DNA from: Puniceicoccales bacterium
Lineage (GTDB): Bacteria; Verrucomicrobiota; Verrucomicrobiia; Opitutales; JAIRKQ01
Length of the DNA stretch: 48,759 nt
Assembly (NCBI GenBank): GCA_031268375.1
Contig: JAIRXJ010000028.1
Coordinates: 1-48,759, forward strand
Direction of reading: 5' to 3'
Below are positions 6,115 to 13,793 of the stretch, piece by piece. A program made the translations under genes and the position numbers. Every line of letters starts with the position of its first letter. Position 1 is the first letter of the stretch. Under the pieces are notes generated by a model. It had not been told where the DNA came from. It made no database searches and saw nothing but the letters and a program-made list of their open reading frames with translations.

Positions 6115-7517
6115 GTCCCCATCGAGCCAAGATTAATCTTGGAAATTTTTATTTCTCTCCATTTATTCGTCCTGTATCTATGGTATAAAAAACCTATCCT
6201 CAGGAATAAACTTATGATCATTCCATACCAACCAATGACAGCGCTACACTCCAAGTTTGTATGCGCCATCAGGATATATATGGGAAAAAATTCCAGCAAC
6301 CAATAAGATAATACGTTTACAATCATTGTATATTTTGTGTCACCCGAGGCGGTCAACATGGCCTGGATCGTTGTCCATAGACCGTCAAGTAAAAATGCTA
6401 ACCAAGCCCAAACCAACATCGATCTGGCCAATGGACCAACGGCTTCTGCTATACAATCTCCCTTGAATAATTTTATCAAAATATCCGGCTGAAATACCAT
6501 AAATAAAGAAGTTATGATGGCCAAAATAATCGAAGTTTTACAGGCAGAATTAATACATCGCCGGACGGCATCGTAGTTTAAACAGCCTATGGCATTGGAA
6601 CAAATCGTTCGCACTCCAGCCCCAATACCTTCAATGGCAAAGAAAAAAGCAACATAAAGCGAATGGGTTATGCCAAAGGCGGAAAAATCATCTCTGGATA
6701 CATGTATCTTAATTAGCTGTACCAATATGGACCAGCCGAAACAGTTGATGAAACAATTGATCGACGATGGAAACCCAACCACAATACAATCCTTCATTAA
6801 TTGCCAGTGAAATTTTATATCATCGACTCGGTATTTTTCAAAATATTTTTTTTGAAAAAACAAAGCAAATAATATAACAAGTCCAACGCTCTGGGATAAA
6901 CCGGTGGCAATCGCCGCTCCAGTTATCCCAAATTCCGGAAACCCAGGAATAATTTTATAACCAAAGATGAACAATATATCCAGCAATATATTCAGTAAAT
7001 TTACCACCATCGCCACCACCGGCACCACCTTCGTAACGCCCCTTCCGATAAAAAACGATGCCATCGCCCCAAAGGAAGCATAGTTTATTGGTAAAAATAA
7101 TATTAATGTACGTAAATATGGCACACCCAGAGGCCTATCACTCTCGATCAACAAATGGGGGACCAGCCAAATGGCCACCGGAATAAAAATTAACCAAGTT
7201 AGAAAGGAAAACCAAATCATCTGCCATACCACAGGCCCGATTAGTTTAAATTTCCCAGCACCATTGAACTGGCCAACAAAAACCTCGGCAATAAGAACTA
7301 TATTCATGGCCGTAAACATAAACAGCCAGTACCATTGCATCACACTAAAACAGACATTAAAGGCCTCCTGTGAATAGTGAGACAGCACAATCCTGTCACC
7401 CAAAACCATCAGACAGCCCGAAGCAGAGGCTACCATCATTGGCCAAGAAATAGATAACAACTCACGAGCACTACCAGGCCTATACTTGGATAGCGAATTA
7501 GGGATATCAGAAATCAT
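6111..7517 (-). CDS. MATE family efflux transporter
   Basis: About 12 hydrophobic segments. The N-terminal LLSISWPMM...VGQFNGAGK is typical of MATE/NorM. It is a paralog of 20862..22223. Its stop overlaps the convergent carrier-protein stop (CTAG at 6111..6114). Confidence 0.85.
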   Translation of the reverse strand: MISDIPNSLSKYRPGSARELLSISWPMMVASASGCLMVLGDRIVLSHYSQEAFNVCFSVMQWYWLFMFTAMNIVLIAEVFVGQFNGAGKFKLIGPVVWQMIWFSFLTWLIFIPVAIWLVPHLLIESDRPLGVPYLRTLILFLPINYASFGAMASFFIGRGVTKVVPVVAMVVNLLNILLDILFIFGYKIIPGFPEFGITGAAIATGLSQSVGLVILFALFFQKKYFEKYRVDDIKFHWQLMKDCIVVGFPSSINCFINCFGWSILVQLIKIHVSRDDFSAFGITHSLYVAFFFAIEGIGAGVRTICSNAIGCLNYDAVRRCINSACKTSIILAIITSLFMVFQPDILIKLFKGDCIAEAVGPLARSMLVWAWLAFLLDGLWTTIQAMLTASGDTKYTMIVNVLSYWLLEFFPIYILMAHTNLECSAVIGWYGMIISLFLRIGFLYHRYRTNKWREIKISKINLGSMGT

Positions 7518-7566
7518 AAAAAATAAACGAAAACAACAGCACCAAAAAGGTGAAGACGCGATAAAA

Positions 7567-7642
<76 letters not shown>

Positions 7643-7769
7643 TCTCTAGGTACTATCGTAAGGCGGCTGAAGGTATTTCTACTTCAAAAATCTTTGCCGA
7701 TATTCTCCTAACTAAACTCTCTTGTTCTAAGAAGGCAAGAAAGTTTTATGTACATTTTGTCGGGTTAAA

Positions 7770-8110
7770 GGTAATATGATTTTATCCGCTGTGGAAACTA
7801 TGAAAGGCATAAAATGGAAGGCCAAGAAGAGAATGTAGCCATTTAACTTGGAAAAGGTATTTATTTCTTTCCCTTTCCTTTATTCCCCCATTAGGCTTTT
7901 GCTAATTATCTCCATTCGCTCATCCCTCTGAAATTTCCTTCGCGACTTTGGAAAAGGGCTTTATCCCCCAAGAGCTTCTTCTTTTATCAGTTCCGTCTCT
8001 TGGCTTCGGACTTTCTTCTCCTTTTTCTATTCGTCATCCTCTTTTTATGAGGCTTGACTCTGTCCGCAACTATTGCAAGCCTGTGCTTGTATCAACGTAT
8101 CATAATTTTG
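7770..8110 (-). ncRNA. rnpB: Candidate RNase P RNA (boundaries approximate)
   Basis: The minus strand of a ~540-bp ORF-free gap carries GAAGAAAGTCCGAAGCC (8018..8002), with an exact GAAAGUCCG of the RNase P P4/CR-I core. Collinear purine-rich blocks follow that resemble other conserved regions: AAAGTCGCGAAGGAAA, GGGGGAATAAAGGAAAGGG, CCAAGTTAAATGG, TTTCCACAGCGGATAAAATC. A possible P1 is ATTATGAT (8106..8099) with ATCATATT (7780..7773). The canonical P4 3' strand GGCUUA and the bulged-U geometry could not be confirmed by eye. Confidence 0.33.
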
Positions 8111-8187
8111 GTACCGCAAGAATTGTTTGATATATTTGTCTTTAAATTTTTAAGAAATTCTGTTCACTGCTAGGCAGGTTATATAAA

Positions 8188-9516
8188 ATGAGCTTGGGTC
8201 GCTATTTTAACTATGATTCTATTGTGGAATTGTTCAGTTCATCTTTTAAAGATGCTATGGGTGAAATACTGTCGACTAGTAGTCTTGGAGGAAATGCTGA
8301 TGAAATTGTTTCGAAATTGGAAGCCAAGGAAAGCGAAAATACGTCCTACATAGGCAATAGAATTGCCATCTCCTATTTGTGTTTAGACTTTCCATCTCCC
8401 TGTGAAATATGCATTGGATGGTCCAAAAATGGAATAAGGTCTGGTTTCTCAAGTGTGGGAGAATATGTACGTATTGTCGCTTTGCTGTTGGTGTCGAAAA
8501 GAGAGCATAATTTTTTAAAAATCATTGCCGATCTGGTAAATTTTTTCCAAAAACCATCAGTCACTAAGCTTTTGCAGAAGGCAGAAACATTTGAAACGTT
8601 TAAAACTACTCTGATAGATTCGTTAAAAAATATCGGGAAAAAAGCTAAATTTGTTCAAATAGATCCCAATGAAATTTTTCTGAGAAATGCCGTCGAAATT
8701 GCACGACAGTCGCAATGTACAAATATTATGTTATTTGGTGACATTGATCTTAGCAACATCGACATAGAAGAAGTTTTTAGTGGGATAGGACTAGTAAATA
8801 TCATACAAAGCGAATCCGATTCGAGCAGTATTATCTACGATTCCCATGTGGAGTTTCGCATTAATGCAATACCAACAAACTGGATCCGTGGTTTTAGGGG
8901 AATAATTCTACTGGGCATAGCAAAAAAAATCCTCCGCCACGATTCAAAAGTTTGCTGCGTTGGGAGTAATACAATTCCAAATATTTTGGATACGCTATTC
9001 ATAGTCGATGTTCAAAATGAATTTCATCAGGTCATTTCCTCCGATGCAAAATTTCTACAAGATGATATAAAACCTGAGGTATTGGAACGTGTGTTATCAA
9101 TCGCCATGGAAATTGCCATTGAAGGGAGGGAAGGGAAAGCCGTTGGTTGTCTATTTGTCATTGGGGACATCGACAAGATTTCCCTGTACATGAAGCCGCT
9201 CGTTTGTAACCCATTCTATGGCTATCCAGAGTCCGAACGGAATATTTTCAATCCATTCATGGATGAAACCATCAAAGAATTTTCTTTGATAGATGGAGCC
9301 TTTGTAATCCACGGAAATGGCATAATAGAATCCGCAGGAACGTTGATTTATACGCCAAATCATAATGTCGTCATGCCCGGAGGATTTGGAACAAGACATA
9401 CCGCCGCTGCGTCAATATCAAGCGTAGCCGAATGTATTGCCATCGCTGTATCTGAAAGCACACGAGCGGTAACACTATTCAAAAGTGGACAAATGTTGCA
9501 GGTAATGCAAAAGTAG
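8188..9516 (+). CDS. Soluble diadenylate cyclase (DAC/DisA_N domain) with N-terminal PTS EIIA type-2-like domain
   Basis: C-terminal DAC motifs LIDGAFVI, GFGTRHTAAASIS, AVSESTRAVTLF. N-terminal KESENTSYIGNRIAISY ... VRIVALLLVSKREHNFLKIIADLVNFF matches the EIIA(Ntr)/PTS_EIIA_2 pattern. No TM helices. Confidence 0.8.
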   Translation: MSLGRYFNYDSIVELFSSSFKDAMGEILSTSSLGGNADEIVSKLEAKESENTSYIGNRIAISYLCLDFPSPCEICIGWSKNGIRSGFSSVGEYVRIVALLLVSKREHNFLKIIADLVNFFQKPSVTKLLQKAETFETFKTTLIDSLKNIGKKAKFVQIDPNEIFLRNAVEIARQSQCTNIMLFGDIDLSNIDIEEVFSGIGLVNIIQSESDSSSIIYDSHVEFRINAIPTNWIRGFRGIILLGIAKKILRHDSKVCCVGSNTIPNILDTLFIVDVQNEFHQVISSDAKFLQDDIKPEVLERVLSIAMEIAIEGREGKAVGCLFVIGDIDKISLYMKPLVCNPFYGYPESERNIFNPFMDETIKEFSLIDGAFVIHGNGIIESAGTLIYTPNHNVVMPGGFGTRHTAAASISSVAECIAIAVSESTRAVTLFKSGQMLQVMQK

Positions 9517-9582
9517 TATCATTTCCATAAGGCTACGACCATATGTGGGGATCAAAAAAACGATGTAAGTCGGACTGAATGG

Positions 9583-11238
9583 TTATGGGATTAGCTGTAC
9601 TGCTTCCTCAATCGTAGTCAATCCTCGACATGCACGTGCGAAAGCATCCTGGGCTAGAAATGTCATTCCATCGGCGATAGCAATGGCACGGATTTCAGAT
9701 TCCGATGCACCATTGACGATGGCTTCGTGAATTTTTTCACTCATACCGAGAGTTTCGAAAACTGCCATTCGGCCACGGAATCCGATGCCATTACAGTGTT
9801 CGCATCCCACAGCTTCCATTAATTTTGCGCCGGCAGGTACTGCTGGAACATTGAAAAGGCAACGTAACCTTTCCAATTCATCGGGCGTGTTGAGTTTTTC
9901 TGATTCCCTGGCACAATGTGGGCATAGCCTGCGAACAAGCCTTTGGGCACATACCATTTCTACGGCAGATGCAATCATGTAGTACTCTATGCCGATATCT
10001 TTTAGCCGGGTTATGGACCCCACCGCATCATTTGTGTGTAGGGTGCTTAGGACTAGGTGTCCTGTAACTGCCGCACGAATTGCAATATCTCCAGTCTCGG
10101 AGTCTCTAATTTCTCCCAACATAATAACATCAGGATCCTGACGCAATATGGAACGCAATATGCTGGCGAAAGTTAGCCCTATTTCTGAATGTACCTGTGC
10201 TTGATTAGCACCAGCAATTTCATATTCAACGGGATCCTCAACGGTTATTAGACGGGTCGTTGGGGAATAGACATGGCGTAAAAAAGCACTAAGCGTCGTT
10301 GACTTTCCGGAACCCGTTGGTCCAGTAACTAGAACTATTCCATGCGGCTTACTCAATGCTTTTTCTGCCACTTTAAATTGATACCCTGTCATGTCTAAAT
10401 CACGCAGGGAGACTGGAGCACCACCTCCTTGCCTTAGTAACCTAAGGCTGATGCTTTCTCCATGTACAACAGGTAGCGTAGATATGCGAATGTCGATAAT
10501 ATCCTTGCCCTCCCTGAATGAAATTTTACCGTCCTGCGGACGACGTTTTTCCGAAATATTCAGAGATGCCATAATTTTTAGGCGTGAAATAATTGCTGCC
10601 TGAAATTTCACCAAATTCTCGGGAACACGTACGGCAACCAAATCACCATCTATTCGATACCTTACTTGCAAAAAATTTCTTTGTGGTTCGAAATGAATAT
10701 CTGTAGCTCGCGACTTTAATGCTCGACGAATAACATCATTTACAAATTTCACAACAGCTGCCTCATCTTCGTCTTTGCCTTCATTTTCTTGTTGTGTGGT
10801 TGTCACGTCAACAAAACGTTCTTCCTCGGAAGAAAGACCAAAATGGATAGCCAATTCTCCCGTTATTTCGGATGGTATCCCCAGGCATATTTCCGGATAA
10901 TGCCCAGAAAACATTTCGATTTGTCGGCAAATTTTTTCTTCCAGCGGCCAACAGCTTATCACACAAAATTTACCTTCACCCGTCACATCGCTAATTGGCA
11001 AGATGCCATAGGCATTCAAAAATTCTGCAGGATATATGTCAATGTATGACTTATCAAATTGGAATTGTTCTAGGAATGGAATTTCTAAATTTTCGGCTAA
11101 CCAGATAATTGCCTGTTTTTCGTCTTCGCAGCACAACACTTTTGATAAAACTTCCACACGTCTTTGGATAGGTGCTGACATAATCTTGTCAAAATTTTCT
11201 TTTCCCAATTCGGACAATTTTTCAGAAAGAATATCCAT
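9583..11238 (-). CDS. gspE: Type II secretion / type IV pilus family ATPase GspE
   Basis: T2SSE_N-like N-terminus, Walker A GPTGSGKST, Walker B IMLGEIRD, His box TGHLVLSTLHTND, tetracysteine CPHC...CEHC. Confidence 0.92.
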   Translation of the reverse strand: MDILSEKLSELGKENFDKIMSAPIQRRVEVLSKVLCCEDEKQAIIWLAENLEIPFLEQFQFDKSYIDIYPAEFLNAYGILPISDVTGEGKFCVISCWPLEEKICRQIEMFSGHYPEICLGIPSEITGELAIHFGLSSEEERFVDVTTTQQENEGKDEDEAAVVKFVNDVIRRALKSRATDIHFEPQRNFLQVRYRIDGDLVAVRVPENLVKFQAAIISRLKIMASLNISEKRRPQDGKISFREGKDIIDIRISTLPVVHGESISLRLLRQGGGAPVSLRDLDMTGYQFKVAEKALSKPHGIVLVTGPTGSGKSTTLSAFLRHVYSPTTRLITVEDPVEYEIAGANQAQVHSEIGLTFASILRSILRQDPDVIMLGEIRDSETGDIAIRAAVTGHLVLSTLHTNDAVGSITRLKDIGIEYYMIASAVEMVCAQRLVRRLCPHCARESEKLNTPDELERLRCLFNVPAVPAGAKLMEAVGCEHCNGIGFRGRMAVFETLGMSEKIHEAIVNGASESEIRAIAIADGMTFLAQDAFARACRGLTTIEEAVQLIP

Positions 11239-11268
11239 AAAATTTAATTCTCCATTACAGCTTGTGGA

Positions 11269-11664
11269 TTATTTAATAATAATGCCCAATCCGTTTAAAT
11301 CGTTTAAAGTATTTTTCAGTTTAACCGAAAAGCTTTTTCCATCGGATGTGTGAAAATATAGCGTTTTATTACGTTCATCGAAGGAATCTATCACCATTTG
11401 AGTACGACCATCTCCCTGCCTGACCCATTTACACCTATCACTCATAGGATTATATATGTTAAACATCCTAACACCATCCCTAATCAATATTCCTCGAAGT
11501 TCGTAATTAATTTCAATGTCACCTGCTTTCTTTTTTGATCTACCAGTAGGCGATGAGACTTGTCCAACAAATGGGGAGTTCGCTATGAGCGACTCAAAAT
11601 TTTCACCCATGAGGTACGGTGGAAAAAACAACGCGAGGACTAATATTAATTTTGTTAATGGCAT
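11269..11664 (-). CDS. Small signal-anchored protein, GspC HR-domain/PilP-like (tentative)
   Basis: N-terminal hydrophobic anchor LILVLALFFPPYL followed by YELRGILIRDGVRMFNIYNP...KWVRQGDG...VIDSFDERNKTLYF, which resembles the beta-sandwich secretin-binding module of GspC/PilP. It lies between gspD and gspE and has a good SD (AAGGGGA). Confidence 0.4.
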   Translation of the reverse strand: MPLTKLILVLALFFPPYLMGENFESLIANSPFVGQVSSPTGRSKKKAGDIEINYELRGILIRDGVRMFNIYNPMSDRCKWVRQGDGRTQMVIDSFDERNKTLYFHTSDGKSFSVKLKNTLNDLNGLGIIIK

Positions 11665-11675
11665 AATGTTCCCCT

Positions 11676-13793
11676 TTATGAGTTTCTAGGACGAAATTTT
11701 TTGCTACCTTGCCTTTCATTGATCAAAGGTCTACTTGCTTCCCCAATGACATCTGTTTTTGGATTAGATGCTTTGGTTGTTGTTGTTGTTGTCCTTTGGC
11801 GATGTCTTGCCGTGTGTTTTGTAGAATTGTTGTCATCTGAAGATTTAGTACCTCCCGATTGTCTAACGACATGGGTACCCGTACTGGATAACTTTGCCGG
11901 TAATGCTTCTTCTTCCGATGTTAAATCTACAGCATCTTTTGAATCTGTTTCTTCCGCTTCGCATTTGCATTTATTTCCACATTCGCATTTCTTTGAATTG
12001 TTTTCCTCAGGAGGTATTTGGCCGTAATCAACGAATGGGTCTCCCAATGTTCCTTTTGGAAATTGCATAGCTGGCAAAAATTTCCCCGTTCTGTCATAGT
12101 GCTCTATTTCCGGCTGCAATTCTGACCCATCAAGCGTCCGTTTGGCAAACGCTTTTTCACTTGCTGGGTTTGAAATGATGGTAGGTTTGATAAAGATGAT
12201 CAGTTCCGTGTTTTCCTCATTGACACCTTTTGGAGCAAACAACCAATTTCCGATCACAGGGATATCTCCCAGTAACCACAATTTGCCACTGACCTTGGTG
12301 TTCTTCTTTTGTTGTAATCCAGCCAGTATAACCGTATCTCCATCGTATACGCTCACAAATGATACGGCTTCACTTTTCGACATTGAAGGCATCTTGTTGT
12401 GGTTGATCTCTACATCCTCTTTTTTGTCTTCAATTTTTTGACTGATTTCAAGCTGTATTACGCCATTTATCCCAATTAGTGGCTTAACCTGTAATTCGAT
12501 ACCCACATCCTTATATTCAATGGTACTTTTAATTGCCGTAGTGGCTGCTCCATTTGAATCGGAAATGTCGGATTTTACGACGGGAAGTGAATCAACAATT
12601 TTCACCAGCGCCTGCCGATTATGGGTTGTTACAATCGTTGGAGCCGATAAAATTTTCACGTGGGAATCGCTACGAGCTTTGTTGAAAATTGTATTCAGTG
12701 CGAAATTCTTTATGGTGCCATCTATACTAAGCGGCGTTGCCATGGCGCCTACTTTAGAGATGTCTACATCTATTGTTGGGTTAAAATGTTTATTTGTTGC
12801 AGCATTCACCATATTGCTAATTCCCAAAGACTCTAACCCTGAAGCCTGTCCTTTCGTAAGGGTAACCTTGGCAATGACCACTTCGATCCTGACCTGATCC
12901 AACAACACGTCTATTTGGTTGATTATCGATTCGACAAGTTCGATATCCTTCGAAGTTCCACAGGTAATCACGGCATTGCTGCGAGTGTCATGTTCAATGG
13001 TTAAATTTTTTGAAAACTGAAAAGATGACATATTTTCCAATGTGCGCAGATGCTCCGTAGAGTCATTGGAAGTGTTACCAGATTCCTTATTTCGTGTATT
13101 TAGCTGTCCCTTGATAACTTTATTTAAGAGATCAGCAATTTCTTTGGCATCACCATGTTTTATGCGAAATATTTTCGAATCGAGGACGGAATGTTTTGGA
13201 ATATCTACCCTGCTAAGTATTAGCTCCATGCGTTGCAAATTGGCTATGGAATCCGTTATTAGCATGGAATTGGAATCGCTGAATACTATGGCCGATGCTA
13301 TCTCTGGGTTTAGCAGATTGGTTATTAATTTTGAAAATTCATCAACCGACAAGTGGTGCAATTGAAAAATTTTGGAACAAATCTTTTCGCTGGGAGCCAC
13401 ATCTAGCAATGAATAATCCACAAAAAATGGGGATTGTGTGGGTGCGGATTTCATGCTAACGGCTTTCAATAATCCATCTCCGAGTTCCACTATCGCGATA
13501 TGATTTATCGCTAGCACACTTTCGATGGCCCGTATTGCCTCTTCCTTGCTGATTTCTTTCCGAATTTGCAAGTTTATTAGAACATTCCCCAGTTTGCTAT
13601 CCTGTAGGACTGCTTTGCCTGTTAATTCCTCTATAATATATAGGACCTGAGACAATGGAGCATCTGATAGTGCTATACTTTTTACGATGGCGTCTTCAGT
13701 CTGAAAGGCTTCTTCTGCGTCTTCCTCTTCTTCGGCATACATGAATGGTATGCACAAAACTAAAAGAACGAATATTAGTATATGCTTTTTCAT
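11676..13793 (-). CDS. gspD: Type II secretion system secretin GspD with extended C-terminal tail
   Basis: Signal peptide MKKHILIFVLLVLCIPFMYA, N0-N3-like repeats, and a secretin core (VKILSAPTIVTTHNRQALV ... LLGDIPVIGNWLF ... ELIIFIKPTII). A 162-aa low-complexity tail follows. Confidence 0.92.
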   Translation of the reverse strand: MKKHILIFVLLVLCIPFMYAEEEEDAEEAFQTEDAIVKSIALSDAPLSQVLYIIEELTGKAVLQDSKLGNVLINLQIRKEISKEEAIRAIESVLAINHIAIVELGDGLLKAVSMKSAPTQSPFFVDYSLLDVAPSEKICSKIFQLHHLSVDEFSKLITNLLNPEIASAIVFSDSNSMLITDSIANLQRMELILSRVDIPKHSVLDSKIFRIKHGDAKEIADLLNKVIKGQLNTRNKESGNTSNDSTEHLRTLENMSSFQFSKNLTIEHDTRSNAVITCGTSKDIELVESIINQIDVLLDQVRIEVVIAKVTLTKGQASGLESLGISNMVNAATNKHFNPTIDVDISKVGAMATPLSIDGTIKNFALNTIFNKARSDSHVKILSAPTIVTTHNRQALVKIVDSLPVVKSDISDSNGAATTAIKSTIEYKDVGIELQVKPLIGINGVIQLEISQKIEDKKEDVEINHNKMPSMSKSEAVSFVSVYDGDTVILAGLQQKKNTKVSGKLWLLGDIPVIGNWLFAPKGVNEENTELIIFIKPTIISNPASEKAFAKRTLDGSELQPEIEHYDRTGKFLPAMQFPKGTLGDPFVDYGQIPPEENNSKKCECGNKCKCEAEETDSKDAVDLTSEEEALPAKLSSTGTHVVRQSGGTKSSDDNNSTKHTARHRQRTTTTTTKASNPKTDVIGEASRPLINERQGSKKFRPRNS

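Follow-up and report, generated by a model that had tools for sequence, protein, structure and literature searches.

A Puniceicoccales Family without a Phosphotransferase System Keeps a Diadenylate Cyclase Whose EIIA(Ntr)-Like Module Has, in the Window's Clade, Lost the Phospho-Acceptor Histidine

Introduction

Cyclic di-AMP (c-di-AMP) is essential or near-essential in many bacteria. The control of its synthesis is known for few cyclase classes, chiefly for CdaA, with GlmM/CdaR, and for DisA. The stretch of DNA analysed here (the "window") comprises the 48,759 nucleotides of contig JAIRXJ010000028.1 from a Puniceicoccales bacterium (Verrucomicrobiota; GenBank assembly GCA_031268375.1) and contains, at positions 8188..9516, a gene for a predicted diadenylate cyclase (DAC) with an N-terminal module resembling the EIIA(Ntr) proteins of the phosphotransferase system (PTS). 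The histidine that would accept the phosphoryl group is replaced in this module. The question raised by the locus is what such a module does in front of a cyclase, and whether c-di-AMP synthesis can be wired to a PTS in this organism.

The gene belongs to a catalogued class of EIIA-DacZ_P-DAC proteins, of which it is a degenerate, orphaned-sensor variant, and does not define a DAC class of its own. Its peculiarity lies not in the architecture but in the genomic setting, a PTS-less family in which the histidine has repeatedly been lost. In the reading that we consider likely, a sole cyclase that is still needed has had its PTS input cut, with its EIIA module fixed in the unphosphorylated state.

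Domain Architecture of the Predicted Cyclase

The features of the gene on which the argument depends are the following.

8188..9516, plus strand: complete diadenylate cyclase gene with three domains, an intact open reading frame (ORF) of 442 aa plus stop
8188..8637, plus strand: EIIA(Ntr)-like module, residues 1–150, with a degenerate active site (Pfam match at 8257..8613)
8371..8376, plus strand: Ser62-Tyr63, codons TCC TAT as read from the window, replacing the Pro-His of the family
8659..9072, plus strand: central alpha/beta domain, putative DacZ_P homologue, residues ~158–295 (PF21755 in an aligned relative)
9073..9513, plus strand: predicted DAC catalytic domain, residues ~296–442 (PF02457 match at 9112..9492; fold matches to DisA and CdaA)
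9292..9300, plus strand: DGA motif Asp369-Gly370-Ala371 of the cyclase active site (Asp369 and Gly370 invariant in 114 sequences)
9394..9399, plus strand: Arg403-His404 of the "RHR" motif, which reads RHT here (Arg403 and His404 invariant)

The start codon is well supported, with Met1 constant across 114 aligned homologues. At the C-terminus, the DAC domain of the original prediction, which had been made from the sequence alone, is borne out by a Pfam match to PF02457 (residues 309–435, E 5.7e-21) and by the presence of the motifs on which it had relied (IDGAFVI, GFGTRHTAAA, and AVSESTRAV). The third residue of the "RHR" motif is A in 63, T in 14, and R in 12 of 148 representatives; RHT is, thus, normal for the DacZ-like branch, in which this residue is variable. 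The cyclase is the only PF02457 match and also the only PF00359 match in its own genome assembly (G000), and the same holds for nearly every genome of the order, where the fusion provides the single match to either family. Judged by its motifs, its single copy, and a ratio of non-synonymous to synonymous differences (pN/pS) of 0.03–0.07 in the DAC domain, the gene would encode the only c-di-AMP synthase of the organism.

The N-terminal module had been read as a PTS EIIA type-2 domain, and profile and model both support this assignment to an EIIA type-2 (Ntr-like) fold. PTS_EIIA_2 (PF00359) matches residues 24–142 with 29.0 bits (E 1.2e-6), a weak match just above the gathering score of 27 bits. 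A profile built from the 114 homologues finds PtsN/IIA-Ntr chains as its top matches in the PDB (4gqx, E 2.5e-10) and also matches CdaA among the PDB sequences. An AlphaFold prediction from the single cyclase sequence was unusable (mean pLDDT 32) and was replaced by a model based on the 114-sequence alignment (mean pLDDT 84.4), in which the EIIA fold is predicted confidently (pLDDT mostly 78–90 over residues 10–150). In Foldseek comparisons, residues 1–150 of the model match the IIA-Ntr structures 2a0j, 3urr, 1a6j, and 4gqx over ~147 residues with TM scores of 0.74–0.80, normalised to the target, while the C-terminus superposes onto the DAC domains of DisA and CdaA. The middle region forms a domain of alternating helices and strands in the model; a Foldseek search with the whole model returned matches to EIIA and DAC structures only.

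The original prediction had left this middle region unassigned, but a homology to DacZ_P emerges from its relatives. PF21755 (DacZ_P, labelled a probable sensor domain) scores 64.8 bits on residues 161–282 of the Rubellicoccus homologue P0045. The window protein has no PF21755 match and only a sub-threshold match to DacZ_A (15.8 bits, residues 164–193), because its domain is too diverged to give a Pfam score; its middle region aligns without a break with the PF21755-scoring relatives and with DacZ_P-DAC proteins of ~290 aa. The N-terminal domain of DacZ/CdaZ-type cyclases is pyruvate-kinase-C-terminal-like (Braun et al. 2019, PMC6741144), and on the basis of this work and of the relatives' Pfam match, the region is assigned as a putative DacZ_P (pyruvate-kinase-C-like) sensor domain.

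Within the putative DacZ_P domain, the adjacent cysteines Cys256-Cys257 (8953–8958) are invariant in 114 of 114 aligned members, and Cys177, Cys321, and Cys416 are each at least 90% conserved in the family. The cysteine pair suggests a redox- or metal-sensitive site in the predicted sensor domain.

A Catalogued Class of Cyclases

A word-indexed homologue search with a limit of E ≤ 1e-3 yielded 1,497 proteins. The best 120 of these are almost all 440–455 aa long, carry precomputed matches to PF00359, PF21755, and PF02457, and stem from Puniceicoccales/Opitutales bins and isolates (Rubellicoccus, Cerasicoccus, Lentimonas); their source annotations read "diadenylate cyclase" or "PTS sugar transporter subunit IIA". 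To the diadenylate cyclases of Puniceicoccales, Cerasicoccus, and Rubellicoccus, the window protein is 36–94% identical at 99–100% coverage. When 50%-identity representatives were searched exhaustively with HMMER, 1,223 matches were obtained, of which the top scorers are full-length; ranked next are proteins of ~290 aa that cover residues ~155–440 only (e.g., P0150, E 4.8e-49) and that, by this coverage, are DacZ_P-DAC cores without the EIIA module. In the tree, the family makes up a single clade. In genomes of the same taxonomic class that lie outside the order, a stand-alone EIIA protein of ~150 aa and a CdaA-like DAC are found instead.

Contrary to the original prediction, the architecture is, therefore, not outside the known DAC classes but is the standard PTS_EIIA_2-DacZ_P-DAC arrangement of Opitutales/Puniceicoccales, catalogued as class DacD with representatives from Lacunisphaera, Puniceicoccaceae, Coraliomargarita, and Opitutae (PMC6741144). 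The name DacD is attributed there to Corrigan & Gruendling 2013. A division of the DACs into 22 architecture families goes back to Galperin 2023, as cited by a 2026 paper (PMC12901056), which also mentions DacZ-type enzymes in Verrucomicrobiota. That the class might already be characterised and widespread had been foreseen, and the literature search supports one half of this: the class is widespread and catalogued, but a biochemical characterisation was not found. Beyond the listing in PMC6741144, the search found nothing on c-di-AMP in Opitutales/Puniceicoccales.

The window protein shares with the DacD class the order of EIIA, middle, and DAC domains (the middle one as a putative DacZ_P), a length in the range of ~440–455 aa, the role of sole DAC of the genome, the invariant DAC residues, and the Cys-Cys pair. 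It differs from the class in having Ser-Tyr instead of Pro-His, altered active-site arginines, a DacZ_P domain below the Pfam threshold, and a host genome without Enzyme I (EI), HPr, and HPr kinase.

Comparison with the NCBIfam models sets the protein apart from the better-known cyclases. The best model is that of haloarchaeal DacZ (NF041371, E 4e-32; residues 243–437 against model positions 74–262), but the score of 111.6 bits is far under the equivalog cut-off of 430, and because of this distance the window cyclase is not considered an orthologue of haloarchaeal DacZ. The CdaA, DisA, CdaM, and CdaS models reach 28–33 bits on the DAC core only, below their cut-offs of 189–225, which capture transmembrane, helix-hairpin-helix or helical extensions.

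Loss of the Phosphotransferase System

The family of the window's organism (f1) comprises 23 genomes (G000–G022) of 0.7–1.0 Mb, many of them >90% complete; the window's own assembly has 715,708 bases in 52 contigs and is 73.7% complete. Searches for the general PTS components gave a uniform result. HPr (PF00381), the N-domain of EI (PF05524), and HPr kinase (PF07475) are each found in 0 of the 23 family genomes; of the 18 families that make up the rest of the order, 15, 15, and 16, respectively, have them. Of 301 genomes sampled from the whole taxonomic class, 295 have EI, and the class-wide search for EI yielded only five other EI-negative genomes. Among these five and the control genomes, the fusion occurs in a single one (G300), which keeps Pro-His; its sister genome G228 has EI, and the absence in G300 is probably an assembly gap that is uninformative for a link between the histidine and EI. 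In free-living Opitutales, EI, HPr, and HPr kinase are present, and the EIIA module of the fusion, which is the sole EIIA_2 of the genome, keeps Pro-His.

The absence of the PTS is convincing because all 23 family genomes agree. It is a real and unusual loss of the whole lineage and not an effect of incomplete bins. The original prediction had implied that a PTS(Ntr)-like input is wired to c-di-AMP synthesis; this fits the free-living relatives but not the organism at hand, where EI, HPr, and HPr kinase are missing throughout the family.

The family is a strongly streamlined verrucomicrobial lineage. A 0.9-Mb single-contig relative from another family (G025) combines Pro-Tyr with HPr and HPr kinase and has no EI. 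In this genome, the EIIA-DAC gene is followed at a distance of ~500 bp by hprK, encoded on the same strand (G025:C1:225625-227955); no other case of a PTS gene linked to the fusion was observed.

Fate of the Phospho-Acceptor Site

The replacement of the acceptor histidine by Tyr63 (TAT at 8374..8376) and of the preceding proline by Ser62 (TCC), as originally noticed, is confirmed by the codons and by an alignment column that holds Pro-His in 84 of 117 full-length homologues. The remaining dipeptides at this position are Pro-Tyr (PY, 13), Pro-Asn (PN, 8), Ser-Tyr (SY, 4), Leu-Asn (LN, 4), Pro-Ser (PS, 2), Val-Gly (VG, 1), and Val-Cys (VC, 1). Because both residues are exchanged, canonical phosphorylation of the window's EIIA module is impossible.

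Sorted by the presence of EI, 12 of 13 EI-positive genomes have Pro-His (PH) and one has PY, while the 25 EI-negative genomes divide into 16 with PH and nine without the histidine (SY 4, LN 2, PN 2, PY 1). By maximum likelihood, the PTS-less family comes out as monophyletic (SH-aLRT support 100); the tree requires at least five changes of the histidine state, three of them inside this family (SY, LN, and PN). The SY clade consists of the four genomes G000, G001, G004, and G013 and is nested among PH-bearing sisters. An independent-pairs test of histidine loss against EI loss on the tree leaves only 1–2 usable contrasts, and the association is beyond the reach of statistics because there are very few independent events of PTS loss. 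Taken together, the two losses appear as a consistent pattern, not as proof.

The alterations extend beyond the acceptor. Counted over positions with a conservation of at least 90% among 67 canonical members, 14 of 28 are altered in the EIIA module, including R47K, P62S, H63Y, R65C, R78W, and Y109F; the corresponding figures are 15 of 30 for the DacZ_P region and 11 of 71 for the DAC domain.

Selection on the Three Domains

The pN/pS values were obtained from phylogenetically independent pairs within the genus.

EIIA module: SY clade 0.32, PH sisters 0.18
Middle domain: SY clade 0.13, PH sisters 0.07
DAC domain: SY clade 0.07, PH sisters 0.03

All three domains are under purifying selection, with the EIIA module being the least and the DAC domain strongly constrained. 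In the SY clade, pN/pS rises about two-fold in each of the three domains, with p values of 0.05–0.18 that are not significant. No stops, frameshifts, deletions or truncations were found in the EIIA module in 22 family genomes.

Proposed Mechanism and Alternatives

In the mechanism that we propose, the fused cyclase of free-living Opitutales would be tuned by an ancestral relay, in which the phosphoryl group passes from phosphoenolpyruvate (PEP) via EI and HPr to the histidine of EIIA. The streamlined family has lost EI, HPr, and HPr kinase, and because of the loss of these three proteins, the EIIA module would be unphosphorylatable in every one of its members. The histidine would, therefore, have become dispensable or neutral and would have drifted, to be replaced independently in several sublineages; in the four-genome clade of the window, the replacement is Ser-Tyr, accompanied by changes of the neighbouring active-site arginines (R47K, R65C, and R78W). 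The protein would be locked in the equivalent of the unphosphorylated state, a state that must permit c-di-AMP synthesis, because the gene encodes the only DAC and is strongly conserved. Remaining regulation could act via the DacZ_P domain or at the level of expression. The EIIA module itself has been kept under weaker purifying selection; most likely, the cyclase uses it today as a scaffold, for its structure or oligomerisation, or as an allosteric element.

For the free-living Opitutales, this would imply that unphosphorylated EIIA is permissive for the cyclase and that phosphorylation through the relay either inhibits synthesis or is unneeded for it. We put this polarity forward tentatively and with less than even confidence.

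Several observations weigh against the proposed mechanism and have to be set beside it. Pro-His is kept in 14 of 22 PTS-less family genomes, and one genome that does possess EI (G026) has Pro-Tyr; G026 also encodes a second EIIA_2 protein. The link between the losses of the histidine and of the PTS has few independent events behind it, since the PTS was lost only once at the base of the family, with separate losses in one or two other small genomes (G025 and G040). With the own assembly at only 74% completeness, the case for a missing PTS leans on the 23 relatives. The interdomain geometry of the model is uncertain (pTM 0.60), and no biochemical study of the DacD class was located in the literature. 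A relaxation specific to EIIA after the loss of the histidine was considered and rejected, since the two-fold rise in pN/pS spans all domains.

Among the alternatives, a neo-functionalised sensor fares best. According to this explanation, the cyclase would now be controlled by a small ligand or a partner protein to which the His-less EIIA module binds, and since the module is still constrained, such a role has to be considered. Even without its histidine, the module is under purifying selection (SY clade, pN/pS 0.32), Ser-Tyr is fixed, being shared by all four clade members, and a CPA2 antiporter with a pair of RCK_C domains has been retained in the genome. In proteobacteria, EIIA(Ntr) in its unphosphorylated state works by binding to partners such as TrkA and KdpD, which also counts in favour of a sensor. 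However, no conserved new motif or pocket was found, and the altered positions are losses of residues that the family conserves and not gains in common with other His-less lineages, which (SY, LN, PN, PS, PY) all differ from each other. A conserved neighbour gene that could encode the partner is missing as well, and a structural role would explain the purifying selection equally well. On balance, a new sensor function is unlikely, and we prefer the reading of a sole cyclase with its PTS input cut and its EIIA module retained.

Considerably less probable still is a decaying appendage, i.e., a functionless EIIA module heading for deletion in front of a DacZ_P-DAC core that alone matters. Half of the family-conserved EIIA positions (14 of 28) are altered, the PF00359 score is down to 29 bits from the 49–71 bits seen in relatives, EIIA is the least constrained domain, and stand-alone DacZ_P-DAC proteins of ~290 aa do exist. 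Yet a vestigial module is made very improbable by a pN/pS of 0.2–0.3, far under 1; moreover, the module is undamaged in 22 family genomes despite strong streamlining, and its fold is confidently predicted over residues 10–150 (pLDDT mostly 78–90).

An assembly artefact, with PTS genes missed in incomplete bins and EIIA perhaps using a non-canonical residue, might be suspected from the state of the own assembly (73.7% complete, 52 contigs) but is barely credible, given that EI, HPr, and HPr kinase, whose three genes are unlinked, are each lacking from all 23 genomes, of which ~ten are >90% complete and one consists of 6 contigs, that the same searches recover PTS genes in nearly all larger relatives and control genomes, and that the acceptor histidine is gone regardless.

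Genomic Context and Candidate Downstream Components

The cyclase gene stands alone, and no conserved operon partner was found for it. It is convergent with gspE, the T2SSE ATPase gene of a group on the minus strand (9583-13793) that continues with a small ORF and a secretin gene. This type II secretion cluster is syntenic downstream of the cyclase gene in a relative of the same genus; the upstream side differs. Upstream, an ORF-free gap of ~545 bp (7643-8187) separates the gene from a tRNA-Met gene (7567..7642, minus strand). The sole promoter-like site before the gene, at 8108..8136, is no better than chance. An Rfam scan of 7400..9700 (E ≤ 0.1) detected the tRNA only, with neither an RNase P RNA nor a riboswitch among its matches, and the c-di-AMP riboswitch RF00379 was found neither in the own genome nor in its family.

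Additional copies of the cyclase were seen in two family genomes. G010 carries, besides an intact copy on another contig, a second copy with several stops that is 62–74% identical in pieces (G010:C43:2412-3734), and G007 has two intact copies of 84% and 45% identity. These extra copies may reflect a mixed bin; the bin contamination is 3%.

Two genes elsewhere in the own genome are candidates for the further handling of the signal.

G000:C49, locus L058, 2134-4701, minus strand: CPA2 antiporter, candidate c-di-AMP receptor
G000:C36, locus L059, 561-1529, plus strand: 322-aa NrnA-like DHH/DHHA1 protein, candidate phosphodiesterase

The antiporter (Na_H_Exchanger, 855 aa) has a pair of TrkA_C/RCK_C domains at its C-terminus; in Ktr/CpaA proteins, c-di-AMP is bound by domains of the RCK_C type. 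The antiporter and the NrnA-like protein are plausible downstream components of c-di-AMP signalling.

Relation to Other Known Systems

Apart from the DacD class, the closest cyclases are the archaeal enzymes DacZ of Haloferax volcanii and DacY/CdaZ of Methanocaldococcus jannaschii, in which, as is predicted for the window protein, a pyruvate-kinase-C-like domain precedes the DAC domain. H. volcanii DacZ is the single and essential DAC of its organism (PMC6741144), and the window cyclase is likewise the sole DAC found in its genome. Unlike the window protein, the archaeal enzymes have no EIIA module, and the window's host is bacterial.

The N-terminal module has its nearest counterpart in proteobacterial EIIA(Ntr)/PtsN (1a6j, 2a0j, 3urr, 4gqx), which has the same fold and gives the top match to the family profile. 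In contrast to PtsN, the module is a fused domain without the acceptor histidine, its partner arginine is a lysine, and the genome has no EI(Ntr)/NPr. PtsN, like c-di-AMP, controls K+ homeostasis; it does so via TrkA and KdpD and acts in its unphosphorylated form. A further parallel is offered by pseudo-receiver domains without the aspartate, in which the acceptor is replaced and the upstream phosphodonor is absent while the fold is under purifying selection. These belong to another superfamily, and the likeness is an analogy.

Implications

Throughout one verrucomicrobial order, the EIIA-fused class provides the standard cyclase. A streamlined lineage has kept both the cyclase and its EIIA module, with decay tolerated solely at the phospho-acceptor site; c-di-AMP signalling would, thus, outlast a genome reduction to ~0.9 Mb. 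The PTS-less family provides a natural mutant series (Tyr, Asn, Ser) for the EIIA-DacZ_P-DAC class. As a natural experiment, it suggests a direction for the presumed switch, in which the unphosphorylated state would be the one permissive for synthesis. If this is true, the class would link PEP and carbon status in cis to K+ and osmotic control, with a polarity that can be read from comparative genomics.

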